Positions 5,898-63,659 of a stretch of 64,000 bases of DNA are shown one piece after another. Numbering within the stretch: position 1 is the first letter of the stretch; each line of letters starts with the position of its first letter. The notes below the pieces were generated by a model. That model was not told the DNA's origin and searched no databases. It saw only the letters and a program-made list of their open reading frames with translations. This DNA comes from Octopus vulgaris (taxonomy: Eukaryota), in assembly GCA_951406725.2 (NCBI GenBank), contig OX597820.1, positions 74,400,001 through 74,464,000 on the forward strand, given 5' to 3'. The position numbers were made by a program, and so were the translations under genes.

Positions 5898-8500
5898 AAA
5901 ATAGGCAGTATAAATGAACGTGTCTTGGATCGCCTTGGAAACAAGGCTACCTGCTAAACGGCATCAAGTCACACAATCTGCATATCATAGCCATCGGTGA
6001 GACCAAACTCCACAGCGCGCGGGCACTCCTGCACATGTTCGGCGGACATTTCGACATTTATTTTTCTCCGTGTCTGCCGAGAATGGGCGGAGGTGGCACC
6101 GCGGTGCTTCTTCGGAAGAGTCTGGACCTCAAAGTAAGAGCAGCCCGGAGGGTAGGTTGGTCGTCTTGGATGTCAATGGCAGTAATAGGTGTGCTTTTCG
6201 ATTAATAACAGTTTATGCACCGTCCTTAACAGACCGGCCAGCTTTCTTTCGACGTCTAGAGAGTTTCCTGGGAACGTCACGACCTTTACTTTTAGTGGGG
6301 GTTTGGAAAGCTACGCTGGACACGCATCTAGACTACGTGGGCAGAGATAGTAATAGGAAGGGATGCAAATGCCTCAAAGATCTGCTCAGACGTTTCCAAC
6401 TGTCTGACAGGTACCGACTGGACCACCCAAATGTACCAATGTGGACATGGAGCAACCGCATCGGGTCGTCCTGATAGAACATAGATAGAGTATTCTGAAG
6501 GGCAGTGGATAAGGATAGTGCAGGTTGTCCACAATTCCATATGGTCAGCTACACAGACCATAAATTTGTGACTTGTACACTTGACTTAAATAAGACATAT
6601 AGGCAGAGTCCTGGTTACTGGAAGCTGAACGCATCGTTCACAGCACGCCAGGCTTACAGGGACCGGATTAGCACATTAGTTGAGAGAGCATTGACGGGTA
6701 CCATCATCAAAAACAGATGGTGGTATACCCTAAAGAAAGCAATTAAAGCAGAATCTGTTAGGTACAGTAAGGCCCTAGCATTAGACCGAAATAGAATACA
6801 GGGAGACCTAGTTAAGAAATTAGAAGAGACACTTAGAACTGGCATCACGTCCAACGTACTGGCAGCGAGGTTGGCCCTCGACCAACACTTCAACGCCAAA
6901 CACAAAGGATGCGTTGTCAGAGCTAGGATGCGTGCTCTGAGGAACGAAGGAGTTGAAGCCGCCCGAGAGGCCCGAGTGGCGGAGGCGCAACGAGGCAACA
7001 GAGCCACCATTAGGTCACTTACAGATGAACAGGGGCGCGAATTACTCGAGCCTGAAAGGATGTGTAAGGCCTTTCAACAACACTTTGCCCGACTGTTCGG
7101 GACAACTGGTAGGTCAGAACACAGAGTTGACTTTAGTGCCTACCTGCATGGCCTGCCACGTTTCTCAGGAAGAGAAGCGGAGTGTTGTGAAAGACCCATC
7201 ACAGCCACAAACGTACGGGATGCGATGGCAGGCTGCGCAGGAGAAAGTCACCGGACTTGGATTGTCTGCCCTACGAACTTTATTGTCATATACCAAACTT
7301 GTTTGGAGGCGTCTTGGCAGCTGTCTACTGTAACTGGCAGCAAAACGGGAGTATCCCCGTCTTTGTAAAGCGAGGATCGGTGGCACTGCTAAAGAAAGAC
7401 CCAAACAAGGGGACCGTCATAGATAACTTCAGGCCCACCACTCTGCTCAACACAGGTTTGAAAATTTTGGCGAAGGTGTTAGCCGAGAGGTTGGCGCTTG
7501 TCATCGAGAAATTAGTCGACAAGGCGCAAACGTGCACCGTGCCGGGTAGGAGTATCTATGACAACCTCCATCTGATGCGTTACAATCATAAACAGGGTAG
7601 TTAAGGAACCTGGTATGGGTAGGGCGCTGATCAATTTGGATCAGTCAAAAGCTTTCGATAGGGTACACCATCACTACTTGGAGGCTGTCCTTAAAGCGGC
7701 TGGTTTCGGTCCCATCTTCCGCTGTTCGATCGCTGCCTTATACAGTGGCATCCGCTCGGTAGTTCGCGTAAATGGTCATCTATCCAGATCATTTAACATC
7801 ATGCGTTCGATTCGGCAAGGATGCCTCCTCTCATCGTTTCCGTATGTATTGACACTGCGGAAGCTGGCGACGCTGAGGCGCATCCCACGAGAGCTGGGAT
7901 GCGGGAGGAACGTGTCTGTGTATGCGGACGACGTCACCGTCATAGTGTCGAGCCACAAACACATTGACCTGGTTGGCTAGACAATAAAATAATAGGAAGC
8001 GGTAACGGGAGCAAAAATTAACCGGGAAAAGTCAGTGCGCTTGCGGCTCGGCACCTGGAGAAGTAAGCCCATTCCGTCCAACAGCGTCTCTACTGTGGGA
8101 CGCTGGACTGACGGACCGATTAAATTGCTCGGAGTTTGGCCCGGTCCGAATCTCGAAATGGAGAAGAACTGGGGCGAAATAACGACTAGGCTGGCCACTC
8201 TCACCCAGCAATGGGCCGAAAGGAAGCTATACCTAAAAGGTCAAGCGGAGGTGGAGAACGCGTACATTGCATCCGTCATCAATTACCGTCTGCATACTCT
8301 TCCGCTTCTTGTGCAAGGGAAGCGTTCCGATGGTTAGGCGATCCGTTTGCTGTCAACACCCGCTCAATGGAGGGCTAGGCATACCGTGGTTGATGATGCG
8401 CAGACATGCGCTGAGACAGTGAACAGGTGTATTCGCCGTTTGTGAGGCGCGCAGCTCGTCTCCATGACCGAACTGCAACCTTGGATCAAAAAGAGGCCGA
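5898..8500 (+). mobile_element. L1/Tx1-clade LINE ORF2 pseudogene (APE endonuclease + reverse transcriptase), frameshifted
   Basis: APE motifs (IIAIGETK, ITVYAP, TDHKFV), SPGYWKLN linker, RT motifs RPTTLLN, LDQSKAFDRV, SIRQGCLLS, VYADDV, spread over several frames. Confidence 0.93.
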
Positions 8501-15870: not shown

Positions 15871-15876
<6 letters not shown>

Positions 15877-17716
15877 CCTGTATCTCCTTTTTTTGCTTGT
15901 CTTGTTCCTTGGTTTGTGTCTATGTTTTTCGTCTCTCTATGTGTTCGACGTCCTTTTGGTGTCCTGTACACATATATGCGTGTATATGTACATGTAGAGG
16001 TAGGTACGTACATACATGTTTATATATATGCATATATTTTATTAACATATTATACGACTAAACGCACGCACCCTATTAAGTAAGATTGTTCTGTTTATCA
16101 AGTTCGCCTTGATATTAACTCTCACGCGACTCTGCATCTTTCTTTCTTTCTCTCCCATTCCCTTTTTCGTCCTTTTTCCCTCACTTAACTTGTCTCTTCC
16201 TCTCTCTCTCCCCCTCACTGTTCTTCATGGTCTCCTCGCACCATTCCCCTTCTTCTCTCTCTTCCTCTTGCTCCTCCTCCCCCATTCCCGTCGTCCATCT
16301 GCGACGTACTTCCGTCGTAACTGCTATCCCGCCTTTCCTCACCTGCCTTCTAAGGCCACTGGTCGACATCTTCCTCTCTCGTCGTCCACTATAATCCAGC
16401 GTTTGCAATACTTTTTTCGTCTGGCGTTAACAGCCCTTCTTATCTTGTTCTCCTTGTCCTGTCTCTCACTGTTATATATTTATTTTTCCACTGTTTATAT
16501 ATATATTTTTTACTGTTTATATGTTTGTACTGTCGTTACCGTCTTGCTTTTTTTTTTTTACCCCTCCGCGACAAGATCTCAGAATTTTAATTGATTTGCT
16601 TTTCGCGGGAAGGAATTTTTCATTCGAAGTATACGTCTCGCTTTTATCCTTCGAAACGTTTAGTAGATGAAACTTTAGCGACTGAAGAAGGGGATTTTTC
16701 GTTGTGCTTATTGTCCTGTATCTCCTTTTTTTGCTTGTCTTGTTCCTTGGTTTGTGTCTATGTTTTTCGTCTCTCTATGTGTTCGACGTCCTTTTGGTGT
16801 CCTGTACACATATATGCGTGTATATGTACATGTAGAGGTAGGTACGTACATACATGTTTATATATATGCATATATTTTATTAACATATTATACGACTAAA
16901 CGCACGCACCCTATTAAGTAAGATTGTTCTGTTTATCAAGTTCGCCTTGATATTAACTCTCACGCGACTCTGCATCTTTCTTTCTTTCTCTCCCATTCCC
17001 TTTTTCGTCCTTTTTCCCTCACTTAACTTGTCTCTTCCTCTCTCTCTCCCCCTCACTGTTCTTCATGGTCTCCTCGCACCATTCCCCTTCTTCTCTCTCT
17101 TCCTCTTGCTCCTCCTCCCCCATTCCCGTCGTCCATCTGCGACGTACTTCCGTCGTAACTGCTATCCCGCCTTTCCTCACCTGCCTTCTAAGGCCACTGG
17201 TCGACATCTTCCTCTCTCGTCGTCCACTATAATCCAGCGTTTGCAATACTTTTTTCGTCTGGCGTTAACAGCCCTTCTTATCTTGTTCTCCTTGTCCTGT
17301 CTCTCACTGTTATATATTTATTTTTCCACTGTTTATATATATATTTTTTACTGTTTATATGTTTGTACTGTCGTTACCGTCTTGCTTTTTTTTTTCCCCT
17401 CCGCGACAAGATCTCAGAATTTTAATTGATTTGCTTTTCGCGGGAAGGAATTTTTCATTCGAAGTATACGTCTCGCTTTTATCCTTCGAAACGTTTAGTA
17501 GATGAAACTTTAGCGACTGAAGAAGGGGATTTTTCGTTGTGCTTATTGTCCTGTATCTCCTTTTTTTGCTTGTCTTGTTCCTTGGTTTGTGTCTATGTTT
17601 TTCGTCTCTCTATGTGTTCGACGTCCTTTTGGTGTCCTGTACACATATATGCGTGTATATGTACATGTAGAGGTAGGTACGTACATACATGTTTATATAT
17701 ATGCATATATTTTATT

Positions 17717-17722
<6 letters not shown>
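15871..17722 (+). repeat. About 2.2 near-identical tandem units of 835-838 bp (Penelope pLTR-like or retrozyme-like), flanked by (TA)n
   Basis: Unit starts TATTGTCCTGTATCTCC at 15871, 16709 and 17544; visible differences are mainly in a poly-T run. Confidence 0.92.
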
Positions 17723-22070: not shown

Positions 22071-22535
22071 AGTTCTATATTTAAGAGATGAGGAATTATG
22101 TACATTATTTACATTATTTACATTTGACAGATATGTGTCCTCATCTTGTTTGTTTTTAACACAACGTTTCAGCTGATATACCCTCTAGCCTTTATCAGGT
22201 GTATTGGGGAAATGTCTAACCTGGGTTCTCATTCCTAAGGTATTTTTCAATGTTATCAATGATATTAATACGCTAACTTTTTGTTTTTGTACGAACCTCC
22301 TCTCTCTCTTACTTTGCCGCTTGTTTGAAGTGTGACACTCACCACAGGTACGTACAAAAACAAAAAGCTAGCGTATTAATATTATTGATAACATCGAAAA
22401 ATACCTTAGGAATGAGAACCCAGGTTCGAAATTTCCCCAAGACACCTGATGAAGGCTGGAGGATATATCAGCCGAAACGTTGTGTTAACAACAAACAAGA
22501 TGATGACAAATATCCATCAAATGTAAATAATGTTA
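22071..22535. mobile_element. Inverted (head-to-head) pair of Penelope pLTR fragments
   Basis: About 22110-22298 is complementary to 22346-22532 with a 47-nt spacer; same family as 30827-30975 and 48010-48180. Confidence 0.88.
22441..22486 (+). ncRNA. Type I hammerhead ribozyme (Penelope-type minimal)
   Basis: Stem I GACAC/GTGTT; core CTGATGA plus extra A; stem II GGCTG/CAGCC; GAAA; palindromic AACGTT in place of stem III; predicted cut after GUU at 22481. Confidence 0.8.
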
Positions 22536-29001: not shown

Positions 29002-29240
29002 AAAATGGGACAAGAACGCAAAACATCCAGACAGGGACAACAAAACATCCAGATAGACGATAGAAATGAAACAAGGAGGGTCATTCGGAGTTTCCTTTCC
29101 TCAGTCTAGTTCCAGATTATCTTTGCAATTTCGGCTGGTTATACTCGAGATTGCTCCAATCAGGCCAGCCCCAAGGAAAAACTAAGCTAAGCGCATTAGA
29201 TTCCTTGGAATAAAGTAGCGAATGTATACGAAAACAAGGA
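28995..29240 (-). mobile_element. pLTR-like fragment ending at (TA)n, carrying the reversed-order hammerhead-core motif
   Basis: Minus strand: GGCTGG...CCAGCC-GAAA-24 nt-CTGAGGA-AAGGA...TCCTT, then a T-rich tail. Confidence 0.55.
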
Positions 29241-31640: not shown

Positions 31641-32468
<828 letters not shown>

Positions 32469-39165: not shown

Positions 39166-39439
39166 TATATATGCATATATACATACGTATATGTACATAA
39201 TTACATCTATACGTATATATATATATATATATGCATATGTGGGCACAGGACGTCATGATACGTGTACAACAAAAAAGTACGAAGCACGAGTACATGGAAC
39301 ATGAACTATTTTTTCGAACAACGAAAGACACAAATGGAACACAAAACAAACAACATAATGAATGACCCCTTCATCAGTTGCTGGCTGTTTTTCTAGTCTC
39401 GTATTTCGAGCGTTTAATATATATATATATATATTCAGA

Positions 39440-41127: not shown

Positions 41128-41757
41128 TGTGGAGGAGAGAAAGCTTGTCACTGCGGGATAAAGATAAAGACAAAAATGAGGAATGATCAAAGAGCGTGAT
41201 AAATAGAGAATAGATAATAACTAGATAGGGACGCAGAGATAGTAAGGAGAAAAGGAAAAAAGAAAAGGAGAGGGCCGATATGTCGGGAATGCAAAACAGA
41301 ATGTATATACAAATAACAAAAATTTCGCTGAAGATGAGAGAGGGTTAGTGTAGATGAGGGCTGGGCAGAAAAGACAGAGGTTTGTAGTCAGTCGAAGTGG
41401 ACAATTTGGTATGATAACCCCCAAGAGGATTGAAGTAGGGCAGAGAATACATTAACTTCACATTTCCAAACGAAGGCAGGTTGAAAAAAGAAAAATGGAA
41501 TAGTATGTCAATCGTGGCAACGAAGAAATCCTTCATGTAAAACGGTTGACGAGAAAAGAAATTAGGTTAACATTGTGGAAGTGTAGAGGGATTGGCAGAG
41601 GTTTCGCTTTGTCATTTGCAAGTAGATAGGAAAATAGGGTTTTGTTTTAAATATAGATAACGCCTATGAAAGCGCAATAACGCATTGGTTACAGATTTCG
41701 TGCATTCGAATTCCTGGTTCACACAATTCTAATTCCTTTACTGTTTTATTTATTTAG

Positions 41758-42163
41758 TTTTGTTTAGCCCCAGGACTCATAAGGCTGGTTACCTGGTTTC
41801 CATGACCGAGACCACATTCCTGCTGAACGAGTCGTCGCTGCGTTGCAGACTTTAAGAAGAGCAATTTTTGATAGAAAGACATTATTTTTTTTTTTGTTTA
41901 GCCCTAAGACTCATAAGTCCAGTTACCTGGTTTCCACATAAATGGTCGAGATCACATTTCTCCTGGACGAGACGCCGGTGCATAGTAGAGCTTAAGATCA
42001 GCATTTTTTGAGAGGAGGACATTATTTTTGTTTAGCCCTAGGACTCATTAGGCCGGTTACCTGTTTTTTCCATATAAATGGTCAAGAGCATATTCCCACC
42101 TCAAAGAGACGCTGCTCCGTTGCAGAGTTTAAAACCAGCAATTTTTGAGTGGAAGACACTATT
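41758..42163. repeat. Three diverged tandem units of about 130-135 bp
   Basis: Each starts TTTGTTTAGCCC..GACTCAT..G..GTTACCTG and ends GCA(A)TTTTTGA...GACA.TATTT. Confidence 0.8.
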
Positions 42164-44089
42164 TGATTGCACGGGTTCAAGAATTTGACTGAGACTTTAT
42201 TTAGAAGAAAAAAGAAAATCCCATTAATCATAAGTCTGCATCGACTTAGGGGCAAATAACAAACATAACTCTACATAGTGTCGACATTTCTCGCTTTCAA
42301 TAATGAATATTTTTATGATTTTTTACATGAAATGTAAGGGTATTCTACCAAATAGAAGCCTTATCTGTTTATTTATCTATATATTTTCCTTCCATTGATA
42401 TGAGCTTACAAATTTCACTGATGGGGCCTACTGAAGTTTAGTTTATATCTTGCTGATCTGTTACTCATTCTTTTAGAAACGTTTGATTTTCTATTTGAGT
42501 AGCAAACTTCTTGATTGCTTTCGCTGCCAAAAGCGGCGTGATACACCACTCCATGTCGTCACAAAGAAAAAGCCAATGTGAGTTCATTTGATATTTGTTT
42601 ATTAGATATGGCAGCCAAATCATATCATATGGCATCAGAAAGAAAGGTAAACACATTGAATGCTATCACTAAAATATATTAAGTCAGGATACTCAAAACG
42701 AAAAATACGGGCAATCAGGGAGTAGTTGAACGGCAAACTAACAATGATACACAGTTACAACTGAACCAGTGACAGAATTTATCAGTGGTAATTGATACTG
42801 TGAGAAGTAATAGCCAAATCTCCCTCAAACCGTAGCCGACTGTCTTAAATCTGTAACGAAACGTTTTCTTTACAAGTACAGTAAAAGAAGAAAGGCTGAA
42901 AGCTGGCAGAATCGCTGACATGTCGGAGAAAATGCTCAGAGTTATTTCAACCAGCTCTCTACGCTCTTTTCTGAGTTCAATTCCCACTGAGACCAATTTT
43001 AGCTTTCATTCTTTCGAGGTCGATAAAGTAGAGTACCAGTCAAGTACAGGAGTCGATGTAATCGAATTGCTCTTTTTCATTAAAAAGTTACTGGCGTTGA
43101 AACCTGAAGTTAACCGGCGTCTTACTGATGGAAACTGGTTTGCGATGGAAACCGGATAACTGGCCTGTTAACGAGTCCCAGGCCTCGAAGAAAAAGGATT
43201 ATATGAGACAATACAATCCGGTGTGTTTCTTCTGTTTTTATGAATATTTCATATGAAATAGATTTGCAGGCGAACCGAACACATAGAGGCTATTACCAGA
43301 AATACGATTAAACGTCTTGAGCAGGTTTTGAACTCAGATCAGATTAGAAGACAGTTGAATGAACTTATACTTCCGACTGCTTTCCCCCTCTACATCTAAT
43401 CTAAACAAAATACACATTACGAAATAATTTTGGCTCGTCAAAACAAAAAAAAAACAAAATCTTGGTTATATAAATGGACGGCATTAAGATTTTCATTGAT
43501 TCTATTTTACATTTGAATAAATGTAACAAAAACATAAATAAGAAGAAATGCAAAAAAACAAATACAAAATCGAAATAAAAACAAAACAAGTTTTCAGTAA
43601 ATCCTCCATAATATAAATACAAATAAAAATAATAAAAAACTACAGAATTTGCATCTAAGTTTATTTGCAAGAGATAGTATTTTAGCATCAAAACTAATTT
43701 CCCTGGAGAAAAGCTGGGATATTTCATTTGTCAGAACAAACGTAATGGAACAGGAAGAACAGAAACTAGTAAGGATTTTCCTTGACACTGGGTCGATCAG
43801 TATATGTCAGAACTAAGTCGCTGCTGCTTTCTATTTCGAGATGATTACAGTAACCAATATGAGATGTTGTTTCATTATATTACTGTAGATTATAATAAGA
43901 GTAGTAGATTCGCCTCTATTTTTGAACCAAAATTTACAGAAACTCAAGTGCAGTCACATGTAATGCTGCTTCTTTTCTCTGTTCTGAAGTTCTAGTGATG
44001 CATTAAGAGGAAATGTTTTCAATTACTACCATTGTTTACTTGTATTCTTTCTGCTAATATCACTGCCTCGTATTATTTGCTCGTGTTGA

Positions 44090-45138
44090 GGCGGCGGGCT
44101 GGCAGAATCGTTAGCGCGCCGGGCGAAATACTTAGCGGTGGTTCGTCTGTCACTACGTTCTGAGTTCAAACTCCGCCGAGGTAGACTTTGCCTTTCATCC
44201 TTTCGGGGTCGATTAAATAAGTACCAGTTACGCACTGGGGTCGATATAATCGACTTAATCCGTTTGTCTGTCCTTGTTTGTCCTCTCTGTGTTTAGCCCC
44301 TTGTGGGTAGTAATGAAATAGCTATTTCGTCTGCCGCTACGTTCTGAGTTCAAATTCCGCCGAGGTAGACTTTGCCTTTCATCCTTTCGGGGTCGATTAA
44401 ATAAGTACCAGTTACGTACTGGGGTCGATATAATCGACTTAATCCGCTTGTCTGTCCTTGTTTGTCCTCTCTCTGTGTTTCGCTCCTTGTGGGTAGTAAA
44501 GAAATAGGTATTTCGTACTGAGTTCAAATTCCGCCTAGGTCGACTTTGCCTTTCATGCTTCGGAGATCGATAAATTAAGTACCAGTTGCATACTGGGTCG
44601 ATCTAATCGACTGGCCCCTCCCCACAAAATTTCGGGCCTTGTGCCTAGAGTAGAAAAGAGTCATTAGCACACCGGGCGAAATACTTAGCGGTATTTCGTG
44701 TATCTTTACGTTCAGGGTCAATAAATTAAGGACCAGTGAAACACTGGGATCGATGCAATCGACTAATACCCTCTCATAAAATTTCAGGCATTGTACCTTT
44801 AGTGGAAAGGATTATCATTATTGTGGTGGCGAGCCGGCAGAGTTGTTAGCACGCCGGTCAAAATTCTTAGCAGCATTTCTTCCATCTTTACGTTCTGGGT
44901 TCGAATTCCGCCGATATTGACTCTGCCTTTCATGTTTTCGGAGTCGATAAAATAAGTACCAGTTTTATATACACGGTTTTATTTATATATATAGTTTTAT
45001 TTCAATATTTCTTGCCAATAGAGAACGAGCAGGTTCCTAATCTAGATCCAAGTCGGAATTTGAGCTCAGAAATTAAAAACGGGCGAAATACCGCGAAGCA
45101 TTCTGCCCGGCGAAGTAACGATTCTGCCAGGTCACCGC
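44090..45138 (+). mobile_element. Cluster of SINE family A: trimer 44090-44657, further copies to 44965, minus-strand head 45053-45138
   Basis: Repeated body monomers of about 180 bp. Confidence 0.9.
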
Positions 45139-50966: not shown

Positions 50967-51052
<86 letters not shown>

Positions 51053-51388
51053 CACGTCTTTCCCATCGAGACAGGTTTTCAAAGACCGGATTAGTACACT
51101 AGTAAAGAGGGCTTTGACGGGAGCCATCATCAACAACAAATGGTGGTTTGCCCTCAAGAGAGCAGTAAAAGCAGAAGCGATTTGGTACAGCAAAATACTA
51201 GCCATAGATAGAAATAGAGTAGAGGGTGAGCTAGTTAAGAAGCTAGAAGAGGCAATTAGAAGCGGCATTGCATCCGACGTTTTGGCGGCGAGGTTGGCCC
51301 TCGACCAACACTTCAACGCCAAACACGAAGGGTGTGCTGTCAGAGCTAGGATGCGTGCTCTAAGGAACGAAGGTGTTGGAGCCGCGAG
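51053..51388 (+). mobile_element. Internal fragment of the same L1/Tx1 family as 5898-8500
   Basis: DRISTLVKRALTGAIINNKWWFALK...ARLALDQHFNAKHEGCAVRARMRALRNEGV aligns with about 6630-6968. Confidence 0.92.
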
Positions 51389-51425
51389 AATCCTTGTTTG
51401 TTTTGATTGTTTCTAGGTGAACTAA

Positions 51426-52420
51426 GGCGGTGAGCTGGCCGAAACGTTAGCACGCCGGGCGAAATACTTAGCGGTATCTCGTCTGCTGCTACGTTCCGAG
51501 TTCAAATTCCGCCGATGTCGACTTTGCCTTTTATCTTTTCGGGGTCGATTAAATAAGTACCAATTACGCACTGGGGTCAATATAATCGACTTAATCCGTT
51601 TGCCTGTCCTTGTTTGTGCTCTCTGTGTTTAGCCCCTTGTGGGTAGTAAAGAAATAGGTATTTCTCCTGCTGCTACGTTCTGAGTTCAAATTCCGCCGAG
51701 GTAGACTTTGCCTTTCATCCTTTCGGGGTCGATTAAATAAGTACCAGTTACACACTGGGGTCGATATAATCGACTTAATCCGTTTGTCTGTCCGTGTTTG
51801 TTCCCTCTATGTTTAGCCCCTTGTGGGTGGTAAAGAAATAGGTACTTCGTTTGTCTTTACTTTCTGAGTTCAAATTTCTACGAGGTCGACTTTGCATTTC
51901 ATCCTTTCGGAGTCGATAAAATAAGTAACCGTTCATCACTGGGTGTCGATATAATTTCAGGCATTGTACCTATAGTAGAAAGCATTATTCATAGATCAAC
52001 TAAAGTGGCGAGCTGGCAGAAACGTTAGCACGCCGGGCGAATAGCCTAGCGGTATTTCGGCTGCCGTTAAGTTCTGAGTTCAAATTCTGCCGAGATCGAC
52101 TTTGCCTTTCGTCCTTTCGGGGTCGATTAAATTAAGTACCAGTTACACATTGGAGTCGATGTAATCGACCTAATTCATTTGTCTGTCCTTGTTTGTCCCC
52201 TCTATGTTTAGCCTCTTGTGAGCCATAAAGAAATAAGAAACGTTAGCCCGTCGGATAAAATGCTTAGCGGAATTTCGTCTGTTATTACGTTCTGAGGTCA
52301 AATTTCGCTGAGGTCAACTTTGCTTTTCCTCTTTTCGAGGTCGATAATATAAGTACCAGTTGATCTCTGGGGTCGAATTGATCCCACCCTCAAAATTGCT
52401 GGCCTTGGGCCAAAATTTGA
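51426..52420 (+). mobile_element. SINE family A trimer (51426-51985) and dimer (52004-52420)
   Basis: Repeated monomers with fixed junctions. Confidence 0.9.
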
Positions 52421-62516: not shown

Positions 62517-63659
62517 TATATATATATATATAAAACCGTCTAAAGGATAAAATTATCCATTACACTACCGATATATACTACCTATATTAAACCATGGGAA
62601 TACATATGCAAATATATTATGCTCATAGCTTATAGGTAAAGACAAAGATAAAGCTGGGTTTATCAAGAATCAAAATTTAAAGAAAACAAAAAATGGAGAA
62701 ATACTGATGAACAAATCGTTGTTCACCAGTACTTCTCTATTTTCTGCTTTCCTTATATTTTCTCTCTCTCTCTCTCTGAGGATGATGATGATGAGAATGA
62801 TGAGGAGGAGGAGGCAGGTGATGATGAACGATGATGATAGTAACTTGTAATTTCAACCCAGATGGGAATCTTCAGATTGAGGGATTTTTTTCAAATGAGA
62901 GTTTTTCTTTGTTTTTGTTTTTTTAATGTAATTGGTGTTGTTTTGTGGCGGGTGAATATACTTATTTTATTTGTTTTTATTGGAAGGCTCTTGTTCTGTC
63001 TGGGTAACTTGGGGATAAGTGTTCGCGCAGGAAAGAAGATCGATTAGGTATATAAAGATAAGTGGTCTACTCCGTGATTAAAAAGAAAAAAAAAGATTCA
63101 TAAATTAATTAGTCATTCAGTAGGATAGTGTGTGAAAGTGTATAGTGGTTTCGTAATTGCACAAGCATGAATGTTTTGGAGAATGAAGTTCACTGGAGCG
63201 TGAATATTCTTATAAATATACATCAGGTTAGAGGTTTAATATTTGAAGAATTTTCTGGATAGAGACAATGGCATTGTCGATAAATAGGATTTGATGCTTT
63301 GCAGTAAATTGACTTATTGGACGAATGTGTATGAGTCTTTGTGTGCGTGCGTGTGTGTGTACGTATGTATAAAGTTCAAGGGTGATGTTAGACTGACAGG
63401 TGCATATGCGAATATATATATACAAGTAGATATGCGTACACATATATGCAAATATTACGTCTGTATATAAGTATGTTTGGATATGTGTGTGAGTGTGGGT
63501 GTGTGTATGCATTGATCTTGAGTTAGTGCTTTCAAAATAAATTAATACGCCAGATAACATTCTCTGGATAAAGGAATCAATAGAAATGTAGAATCTCAAA
63601 ACTTTTCAGACCAATATGGAGATTGATAGGGACTTCGAAGTCTAGACATCACTGTCACT

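Follow-up and report, generated by a model that had tools for sequence, protein, structure and literature searches.

Background

Eckert et al. 2023 (PMC10085705) described the hammerhead ribozyme as three blocks, C, G and S, and validated two non-circular orders of these blocks, SGC and CSG, that come from metatranscriptomes and metagenomes; type SGC cleaves in vitro, all four of its helices being needed, and block C was taken to be uninterruptible. The hammerheads of Penelope-like elements (PLEs) are minimal type I ribozymes of canonical order, with little or no stem III, that need dimers, and they bear an unpaired base between positions 9 and 10.1 (PMC4209133). Naiad PLEs, which target (TA)n, have been reported as being without canonical hammerheads, some of them holding cores or half cores that fit no descriptor (PMC8557442, Craig et al. 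2021); HHR_core was flagged in 9 Naiads and HHR_half_core in 8, with no fold given (PMC8557442). Animal non-LTR retrozymes (PMC7229834; bioRxiv 10.64898/2026.07.22.740005) carry classical type I hammerheads, and the available text of the bioRxiv report leaves permuted forms, molluscs and cephalopods unmentioned. No report of permuted hammerheads in PLEs, retroelements or animal genomes was found in the main texts of the open-access literature.

Here we analyzed a 64,000-nucleotide stretch of Octopus vulgaris DNA (hereafter, the window; contig OX597820.1, positions 74,400,001 to 74,464,000), which contains four elements, E1 to E4. Judged from its sequence, the motif that these elements have in common combines a hammerhead core with four helices that covary and pair in a crossed (non-circularly permuted) order, apparently opened between A9 and 10.1. 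It resembles types SGC (HRIMA-1) and CSG in the S-G-C order, the crossed stems I-III, the short linker between stems I and II, and the fourth helix that braces these two stems; however, in type SGC, the stem II strand follows CUGANGA, whereas in the window it stands before block S. By analogy, the motif would work like an SGC hammerhead, yet it falls outside that type on one feature, the intact block C. The unpaired base of PLE hammerheads makes A9/10.1 a plausible break point. With the minimal type I PLE hammerheads (PMC4209133), the motif shares the location in the PLE 3' repeat, the proposed cutting of tandem precursors with the proposed circular templates, and the extra base at 9/10.1, but it has a full stem III and the crossed order. 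Naiads (PMC8557442) have the same target and a motif near the 3' end, which in Naiad_Ovul and Naiad_Obim is of the very same order, whereas the window elements are non-coding and, in the case of E1, young. As in the retrozymes, which are proposed PLE dependants, there are non-coding tandem units with one hammerhead each (835-838 nt in E1 and 713 nt in another family); the crossed order, in contrast, places the window elements outside the retrozymes. As far as the open-access literature shows, both the A9/10.1 opening and the occurrence in animal retroelements are undescribed; this backbone opening is without tested precedent in the literature consulted, which counts against the explanation that we prefer. 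A first-pass annotation of the window had suggested an undescribed split or permuted hammerhead-like RNA; permuted it is, but non-circular permutations as such were already described in 2023 (PMC10085705).

Occurrence of the core motif

All five cores listed in the first-pass annotation were found where it had placed them (Table 1). The pattern GAAA-N20-30-CTGANGA has 6 matches in the 64-kb window compared to 1.30 ± 1.08 expected (0 of 100 shuffles reach 6); the sixth match lies at 62869-62907, with a spacing of 28. Across the 2.8-Gb genome, YGAAA-N23-26-ACTGANGA gave 30,459 matches vs 2,614 for the reversed pattern, the flanking Y and A having been joined to the pattern only after the families had been seen. 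When plain spacings were counted in 600 kb of evenly spaced genome stretches, there was barely any enrichment (8 at 24 nt and 6 at 25 nt, with a background of about 3 per spacing), which indicates that the window is richer in the motif than the genome on average.

A first look at the genome returned 1,823 candidate relatives of E1, 689 of E2, 143 of E3 and 2,889 of E4. The E1 copies are near-identical, with 484 exact matches of a 22-nt core pattern, often in tandem and 832-844 nt apart. The four elements had been presented as otherwise dissimilar, and their letters do differ; four unrelated origins, however, are not borne out, given that E1 and E4 have flanks in common and each element has many genomic relatives. 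No open reading frame (ORF) with an N-terminal GIY-YIG and a C-terminal reverse transcriptase (RT) was detected in E1-E4 or their 1.5-kb flanks. Lacking such a frame, these elements can only be non-autonomous, and their tie to Naiads comes from the shared motif, target and position; the Naiad traits that they display are the (TA)n target, 5' truncation, tandem or inverted arrangement, and the 3' motif.

Table 1 Coordinates and helices of the motif in elements E1 to E4.
Feature	Position	Strand	Description
E1	15873..17722	+	5'-truncated, non-coding array flanked by (TA)n tracts; ~2.2 tandem units of 835-838 nt
E1 core	16653-16688 and 17488-17523	+	GAAA-25-CTGAAGA
E1 stem II 5' strand	16609..16614	+	GAAGGA, first G = 10.1; upstream of cleavage strand; pairs with 16647-16652; covaries
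E1 helix X 5' strand	16618..16623	+	brace of stems I and II; pairs with 16667-16672; covaries
E1 cleavage strand, block S	16633..16642	+	stem III 3' strand ACGT, C17 at 16637, stem I strand TCGCT
E1 block G	16647..16659	+	stem II 3' strand, GAAA 16653-16656, stem III 5' strand
E1 last block	16667..16688	+	X 3' strand 16667-16672, stem I partner AGCGA 16677-16681, CTGAAGA 16682-16688
E1 second hairpin	16689..16726	+	probably outside the ribozyme; unconserved
E1 second ribozyme copy	17444..17523	+	predicted cut 17472/17473, 835 nt after the first
E2 copy	29098..29170	-	stem II GGCTGG/CCAGCC, stem III GCAAT/ATTGC, C17 at 29149
E2 core	29132-29098	-	GAAA-24-CTGAGGA
E2 stem I			TCGAGT/ACTAGA, one mismatch; most family copies have ACTCGA
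E2 helix X	29164-29158 with 29118-29112	-	one mismatch
E3 copy	32213..32286	+	older, decayed; stem II ACGC/GCGT, A17 at 32235, stem I TTATA/TATAA
E3 core	32252-32286	+	GAAA-24-CTGACGA
E3 helix X and stem III		+	X CCAAAAA/TTTTTGG; stem III with one mismatch
E4 copy	39371..39417	-	5'-truncated ~7 nt past predicted cut; without stem II 5' and cleavage strands
E4 core	39407-39371	-	GAAA-26-CTGATGA
Stem II, families E2/E3/E4			GGCTGG/CCAGCC; ACGCC/GGCGT; GAGCA/TGCTC
Helix X, families E2/E3/E4			CCAGATT/AATCTGG; CCAAAAA/TTTTTGG; CTGTTTT/AAAACAG
Stem III, families E2/E3/E4			GCAAT/ATTGC; ACAAT/ATTGT; CGTAT/ATACG
Stem I, families E2/E3/E4			TCGAGT/ACTCGA; TTATCG/CGATAA; TTGTTG/CAACAA

Fold and strand order

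The strands follow each other in the order II-5' strand, X, cleavage strand, II-3'/GAAA/III, X', I'/CUGANGA. The stem of the first hairpin is stem II. In its loop lies the cleavage strand with U-H; this strand forms stem III with the bases that follow GAAA and stem I with those that precede CUGANGA. The fourth helix, X, joins the bases 3' of the II-5' strand to the bases 5' of the stem I partner. Thus, of the two hairpins that each core half had been thought to close on its own, the first is real as stem II but not a simple hairpin, since its loop carries the cleavage strand, and the second, although it can be traced in the copies of the window, is rejected as a conserved element, since no more than 3 of the 24 subfamily representatives do better with their own downstream tail than with a shuffled one. 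In E1, the loop reads ACGT-C-TCGCT, whereby ACGT pairs with A-CGT of GAAACGT in stem III and TCGCT with AGCGA immediately before CTGAAGA in stem I; these pairings place C17 at 16637, and the predicted cut, 3' of U-H, would fall between 16637 and 16638. The family copies of E2-E4 keep this layout with different letters in every helix; full copies of the E4 family carry the strands that the truncated window copy lacks (GAGCA/TGCTC and CGTAT-A-TTGTTG).

The CUGANGA and GAAA columns are invariant in the alignment, whereas N7 is A, C, G or T across the representatives. The U16.1-A15.1 pair is U-A in 18 of 18 aligned rows, H17 is C or A in 24 of 24 representatives (U-H was demanded by the descriptor), and the 10.1-11.1 pair is always purine-pyrimidine (G-C in 16, A-U in 5 and G-U in 3 of the 24). 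The linker from stem I to stem II measures 1-5 nt. An invariant core and U-H, a variable N7 and covariation of all four helices across subfamilies agree with the earlier proposal of a hammerhead core under selection.

The bases after A9, i.e. directly after CUGANGA, barely pair with the strand before GAAA (0-2 bp in 17 of 24 representatives, 3 in 1, and 4 weak pairs in 6, the E1/E4 group) while the upstream strand does, suggestive of a chain opened at A9/10.1. Conceivably, the RNA cleaves instead as an ordinary type SGC, with the bases after CUGANGA forming stem II and the upstream strand providing an alternative or inhibitory pairing, that is, a switch. The four pairs, one kind being G-U, in the E1/E4 group (5 of 24 representatives and E1) and the tail of the published spider Naiad_Smim, which by eye folds as a true SGC, are compatible with such a switch; however, the 17 representatives with 0-2 bp include E2, E3 and the Naiad family, the upstream strand makes 4-7 covarying pairs, and the published coral and jellyfish tails, viewed by eye, pair upstream only, so that we consider the switch unlikely.

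Types I, II and III (orders CGS, GSC and SCG, each a three-way junction without a pseudoknot) are ruled out by the crossed S-G-C order, and an Rfam search of the window gave no match at the gathering score, in line with the earlier failure to fold a standard type. Given that neither Rfam nor standard descriptors match the knotted form, hammerhead censuses of animal genomes are likely to undercount. A canonical type II fold within the 24-26 nt spacer was also inspected by eye, with no consistent stems. Nested folding gave z values from -0.41 to +1.11, i.e. no stability signal, as expected for a pseudoknot, and is uninformative.

The window additionally holds canonical-order, minimal type I, PLE-style hammerheads at 22446 (+), 30922 (-) and 48061 (+), of the form GACAC-CTGANGA-A-GGCTG..CAGCC-GAAA-CGTT-GTGTT, with a stem II that resembles that of E2. 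Another repeat (L167, +3872 and -7033), with GAAA-22/24-CTGATGA and a hairpin before GAAA, fails the descriptor and may be another variant.

Covariation and descriptor tests

In an independent MAFFT alignment of 18 hand-picked copies, in which one row and the stem II and X strands of E1/E4 are out of register, 87.1% of the cells are paired compared to 61.3 ± 2.0% after shuffling (0 of 500 as high), a figure inflated by the choice of the aligned copies, like that of the 24 subfamily representatives, from passing copies. Two-sided changes occur in 16 of 18 pairs, and slid registers pair at 22-50%. Stems I and III are paired at 96-97%; helix X is paired at 78%, with two-sided changes in 5 of 5 pairs. 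Thus, stems I to III, together with helix X, all covary on this alignment.

Of 52 copies fetched regardless of whether they pair, 31 can form both stem I and stem III; the same holds for 398 of the 2,576 swaps between subfamilies and for 9 of the 408 sequences at other spacings. When the spacing is 23-26, 97 of 217 matches pass the four-helix descriptor; at the other spacings covered (8 to 60), 4 of 432 do so, the pool being enriched in family copies; 2 matches pass in 770 kb of unselected stretches. The 223 matches fall into 83 spacer clusters, 24 with a passing member and 59 without; those failures that were inspected are largely truncated, decayed or chance matches. The relatedness of E1 and E4, and the fact that copy number alone shows no selection, would suit a motif that arose by chance and was multiplied within one or two families of repeats, but the two-sided changes, the 24 subfamilies and the same fold in cnidarian Naiads leave this account with a negligible probability, covariation refuting it.

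Naiad elements as carriers

The 3' tails of 50 published Naiads (PMC8557442 supplement), 330-400 nt each, were folded by eye, and non-circular hammerhead folds were recognized in 14 of them, from cephalopods, cnidarians, nematodes and a spider. The order of the window motif was seen in 8 tails (Obim, Ovul, Esco, Amil, Anas, Aacu, 2_Movir and 3_Chem; stem II is imperfect in Esco, and Aacu has two mismatches), a complete CSG in 5 nematode tails (Hcon, Hpol, Asuum, 1_Nbra and the record before Hcon), and an SGC fold in Naiad_Smim. Ptep and 4_Dst show a partial fold only; in total, 36 of 50 tails have no complete fold within the 330-400 nt viewed by eye, and 34 have none at all. In bivalve, hemichordate and Clytia-2 Naiads, the 3' ends hold, at the place of the hammerhead, another conserved motif without CUGANGA (CGGGTG, hairpin, GCAG, GC-TTAC/TCAC, CACCTG), possibly another ribozyme class (PMC8557442 supplement).

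In the octopus genome, the Naiad motif pattern has 238 matches and the control 0. An RT followed by a collinear 3' UTR with the motif was found in L272/L317, L274/L315 and L478; the RT frames, which are decayed, stop about 0.9 kb ahead of the motif and lack a C-terminal endonuclease, and their peptides match published Naiad_Obim by eye, with an RVT_1 score below the cut-off. The motif sits, therefore, in the 3' UTR of Naiad reverse transcriptase copies. No intact Naiad ORF is present among the 150 matches listed, all of which are decayed, whereas E1 copies are near-identical, a point against the explanation that we prefer. The association with (TA)n-targeted Penelope-like elements proposed in the first-pass annotation stands, with the (TA)n context and the motif in Naiad 3' UTRs; a Naiad RT is a putative mobiliser of E1-E4. 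The 3' end of Naiad-1_Movir (PMC8557442 supplement) appears to resemble a twister ribozyme, which would suggest that Naiads swap ribozyme classes.

Two other candidate carriers were rejected. A PLE with a C-terminal endonuclease beside E1 (in L006) has no motif in its 3' UTR in 44 loci and their extensions. In the Neptune-like L475, the motif lies 540 nt past the stop but behind a (TA)n tract, and the 3' UTRs of L476 and L477 differ, indicative of a nested insertion; a metagenome scan with the L475 protein gave 2 loci, with no motif. L475, L476 and L477 form a young, intact family (RT of 753-782 aa, CxxxxCxxC linker, C-terminal GIY-YIG, upstream ORF) in whose 3' UTR no hammerhead core was seen, a candidate trans-mobiliser at (TA)n. 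An additional PLE family with a C-terminal endonuclease (L211, G000:C2:95767001-95775000) has an open frame of 1,138 aa that is Asn-rich at its N-terminus and gives no Pfam match.

Copy ends and transcripts

The 5' boundaries of the E2b family were counted in 92 copies from the first 90 loci of 1,952 matches, located by an anchor downstream of the core. Counted from the predicted cut, 8 boundaries lie at +20 to +59, 10 at +10 to +19, 20 at 0 to +9, 6 at -1 to -10, 3 at -11 to -20 and 0 at -21 to -40; 30 of the 92 copies start at most 20 nt after the cut, a pile-up that may include deletions and inversions and in which many junctions use AT/TAAT microhomology with (TA)n, favouring some sites. 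By eye, in a partly overlapping set of 100 rows, 24 of 29 boundaries lie in the 12 nt after the cut. The pile-up fits a reverse transcriptase running off cleaved RNA.

Such ends would also pile up if RT stalled at the knot of a conserved, non-catalytic cis-element of hammerhead descent (an RT loading or stop signal): the split core is a putative catalyst only, pseudoknots stall RT, TA microhomology accounts for many junctions, and E1 is without a pile-up. However, the catalytic positions and the U-H triplet are invariant while stems and N7 vary, and the ends cluster at the cut side of the knot rather than at its 3' base, which makes a non-catalytic role very unlikely.

In E1, by eye, 3 of 100 rows start after the cut and 4 in the 36 nt before it, i.e. 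no pile-up is apparent; long tandem runs without a pile-up would fit a re-ligated circular template. The sequencing runs listed include no RNA holder; contigs of four runs (not on record as RNA) cover the E1 unit, and in three the end of the unit continues into its start, a junction for which a genomic tandem is an equally good explanation. The E1 runs reach six units in a row, as in G000:C2:83359730-83365969, an array with inverted copies on both flanks. In a single case, two tandem E1 units (G000:C2:154336551 and 154337383) both lack the same 4 nt, a deletion on the 5' side of the predicted cut that ends exactly at it, which would fit ligation and copying of a trimmed monomer.

Proposed mechanism and significance

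We put at roughly three in four the probability that the knotted hammerhead self-cleaves the RNA of Naiad PLEs and of their likely non-coding dependants, giving linear or circular templates for (TA)n insertion. The core would close only once CUGANGA, the last block, is transcribed, and would then cut 3' of U-H; a stem III of 4-5 bp would let a single copy act alone, unlike the dimer-needing minimal PLE hammerheads. If a tandem transcript were cut twice, a monomer of 835 nt would be released, the ends of which, held by helices II, X and III, would favour circularisation; a Penelope-type RT/endonuclease could then copy circles into (TA)n, yielding tandem arrays, or, alternatively, the linear 3' product could be copied, yielding copies that start just after the cut.

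The strands might instead assemble between two copies in a tandem transcript, as a strand-swapped dimer rather than a knotted monomer. Tandem arrays, the dimeric action of metazoan PLE hammerheads (PMC4209133) and the possibly slow threading of three helices into a closed loop all speak for a dimer; nevertheless, stem III has 4-6 bp and is mostly non-palindromic, and in SGC and CSG, the connectivities of which are nearly the same, short monomers do cleave (PMC10085705), so that the dimer appears quite unlikely, and cleavage by the knotted monomer is retained.

With A9 rejoined to 10.1, the strands would make one circle, of which SGC, CSG and the window form would be three opening places. We also lean, with some reserve, towards a wider reading, whereby the hammerheads 'missing' from Naiads are non-circular permutations found across at least four phyla of animals: nematodes would have CSG, a spider SGC, and cephalopods and cnidarians the form opened at A9/10.1. 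On this reading, the core-opened form would be active as a monomeric ribozyme, with about 28,000 copies of intact core in the octopus genome, and all three forms would stem from a single circular ribozyme into which the remainder of the element was inserted at different points. This would explain the apparent lack of a ribozyme in the Naiad group. If true, non-circular hammerheads, so far a few hundred sequences from metatranscriptomes, would number tens of thousands of copies in animal genomes and have a biological role. It would also overturn the view that Naiads, which rank among the most abundant retroelements of invertebrates, spread without hammerheads. Likewise, the A9-10.1 backbone link would be dispensable, giving a seventh topology beyond the six thought possible and offering ribozyme engineers a new place for ends.

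Other repeats in the window

Broken non-LTR retrotransposon frames with endonuclease- and RT-like motifs were noted at 6001-8337 (+) and 51050-51416, and tandem SINE-like units of 184 and 134-137 nt are present at 44142-44612, 51479-51955 and 41750-42164.
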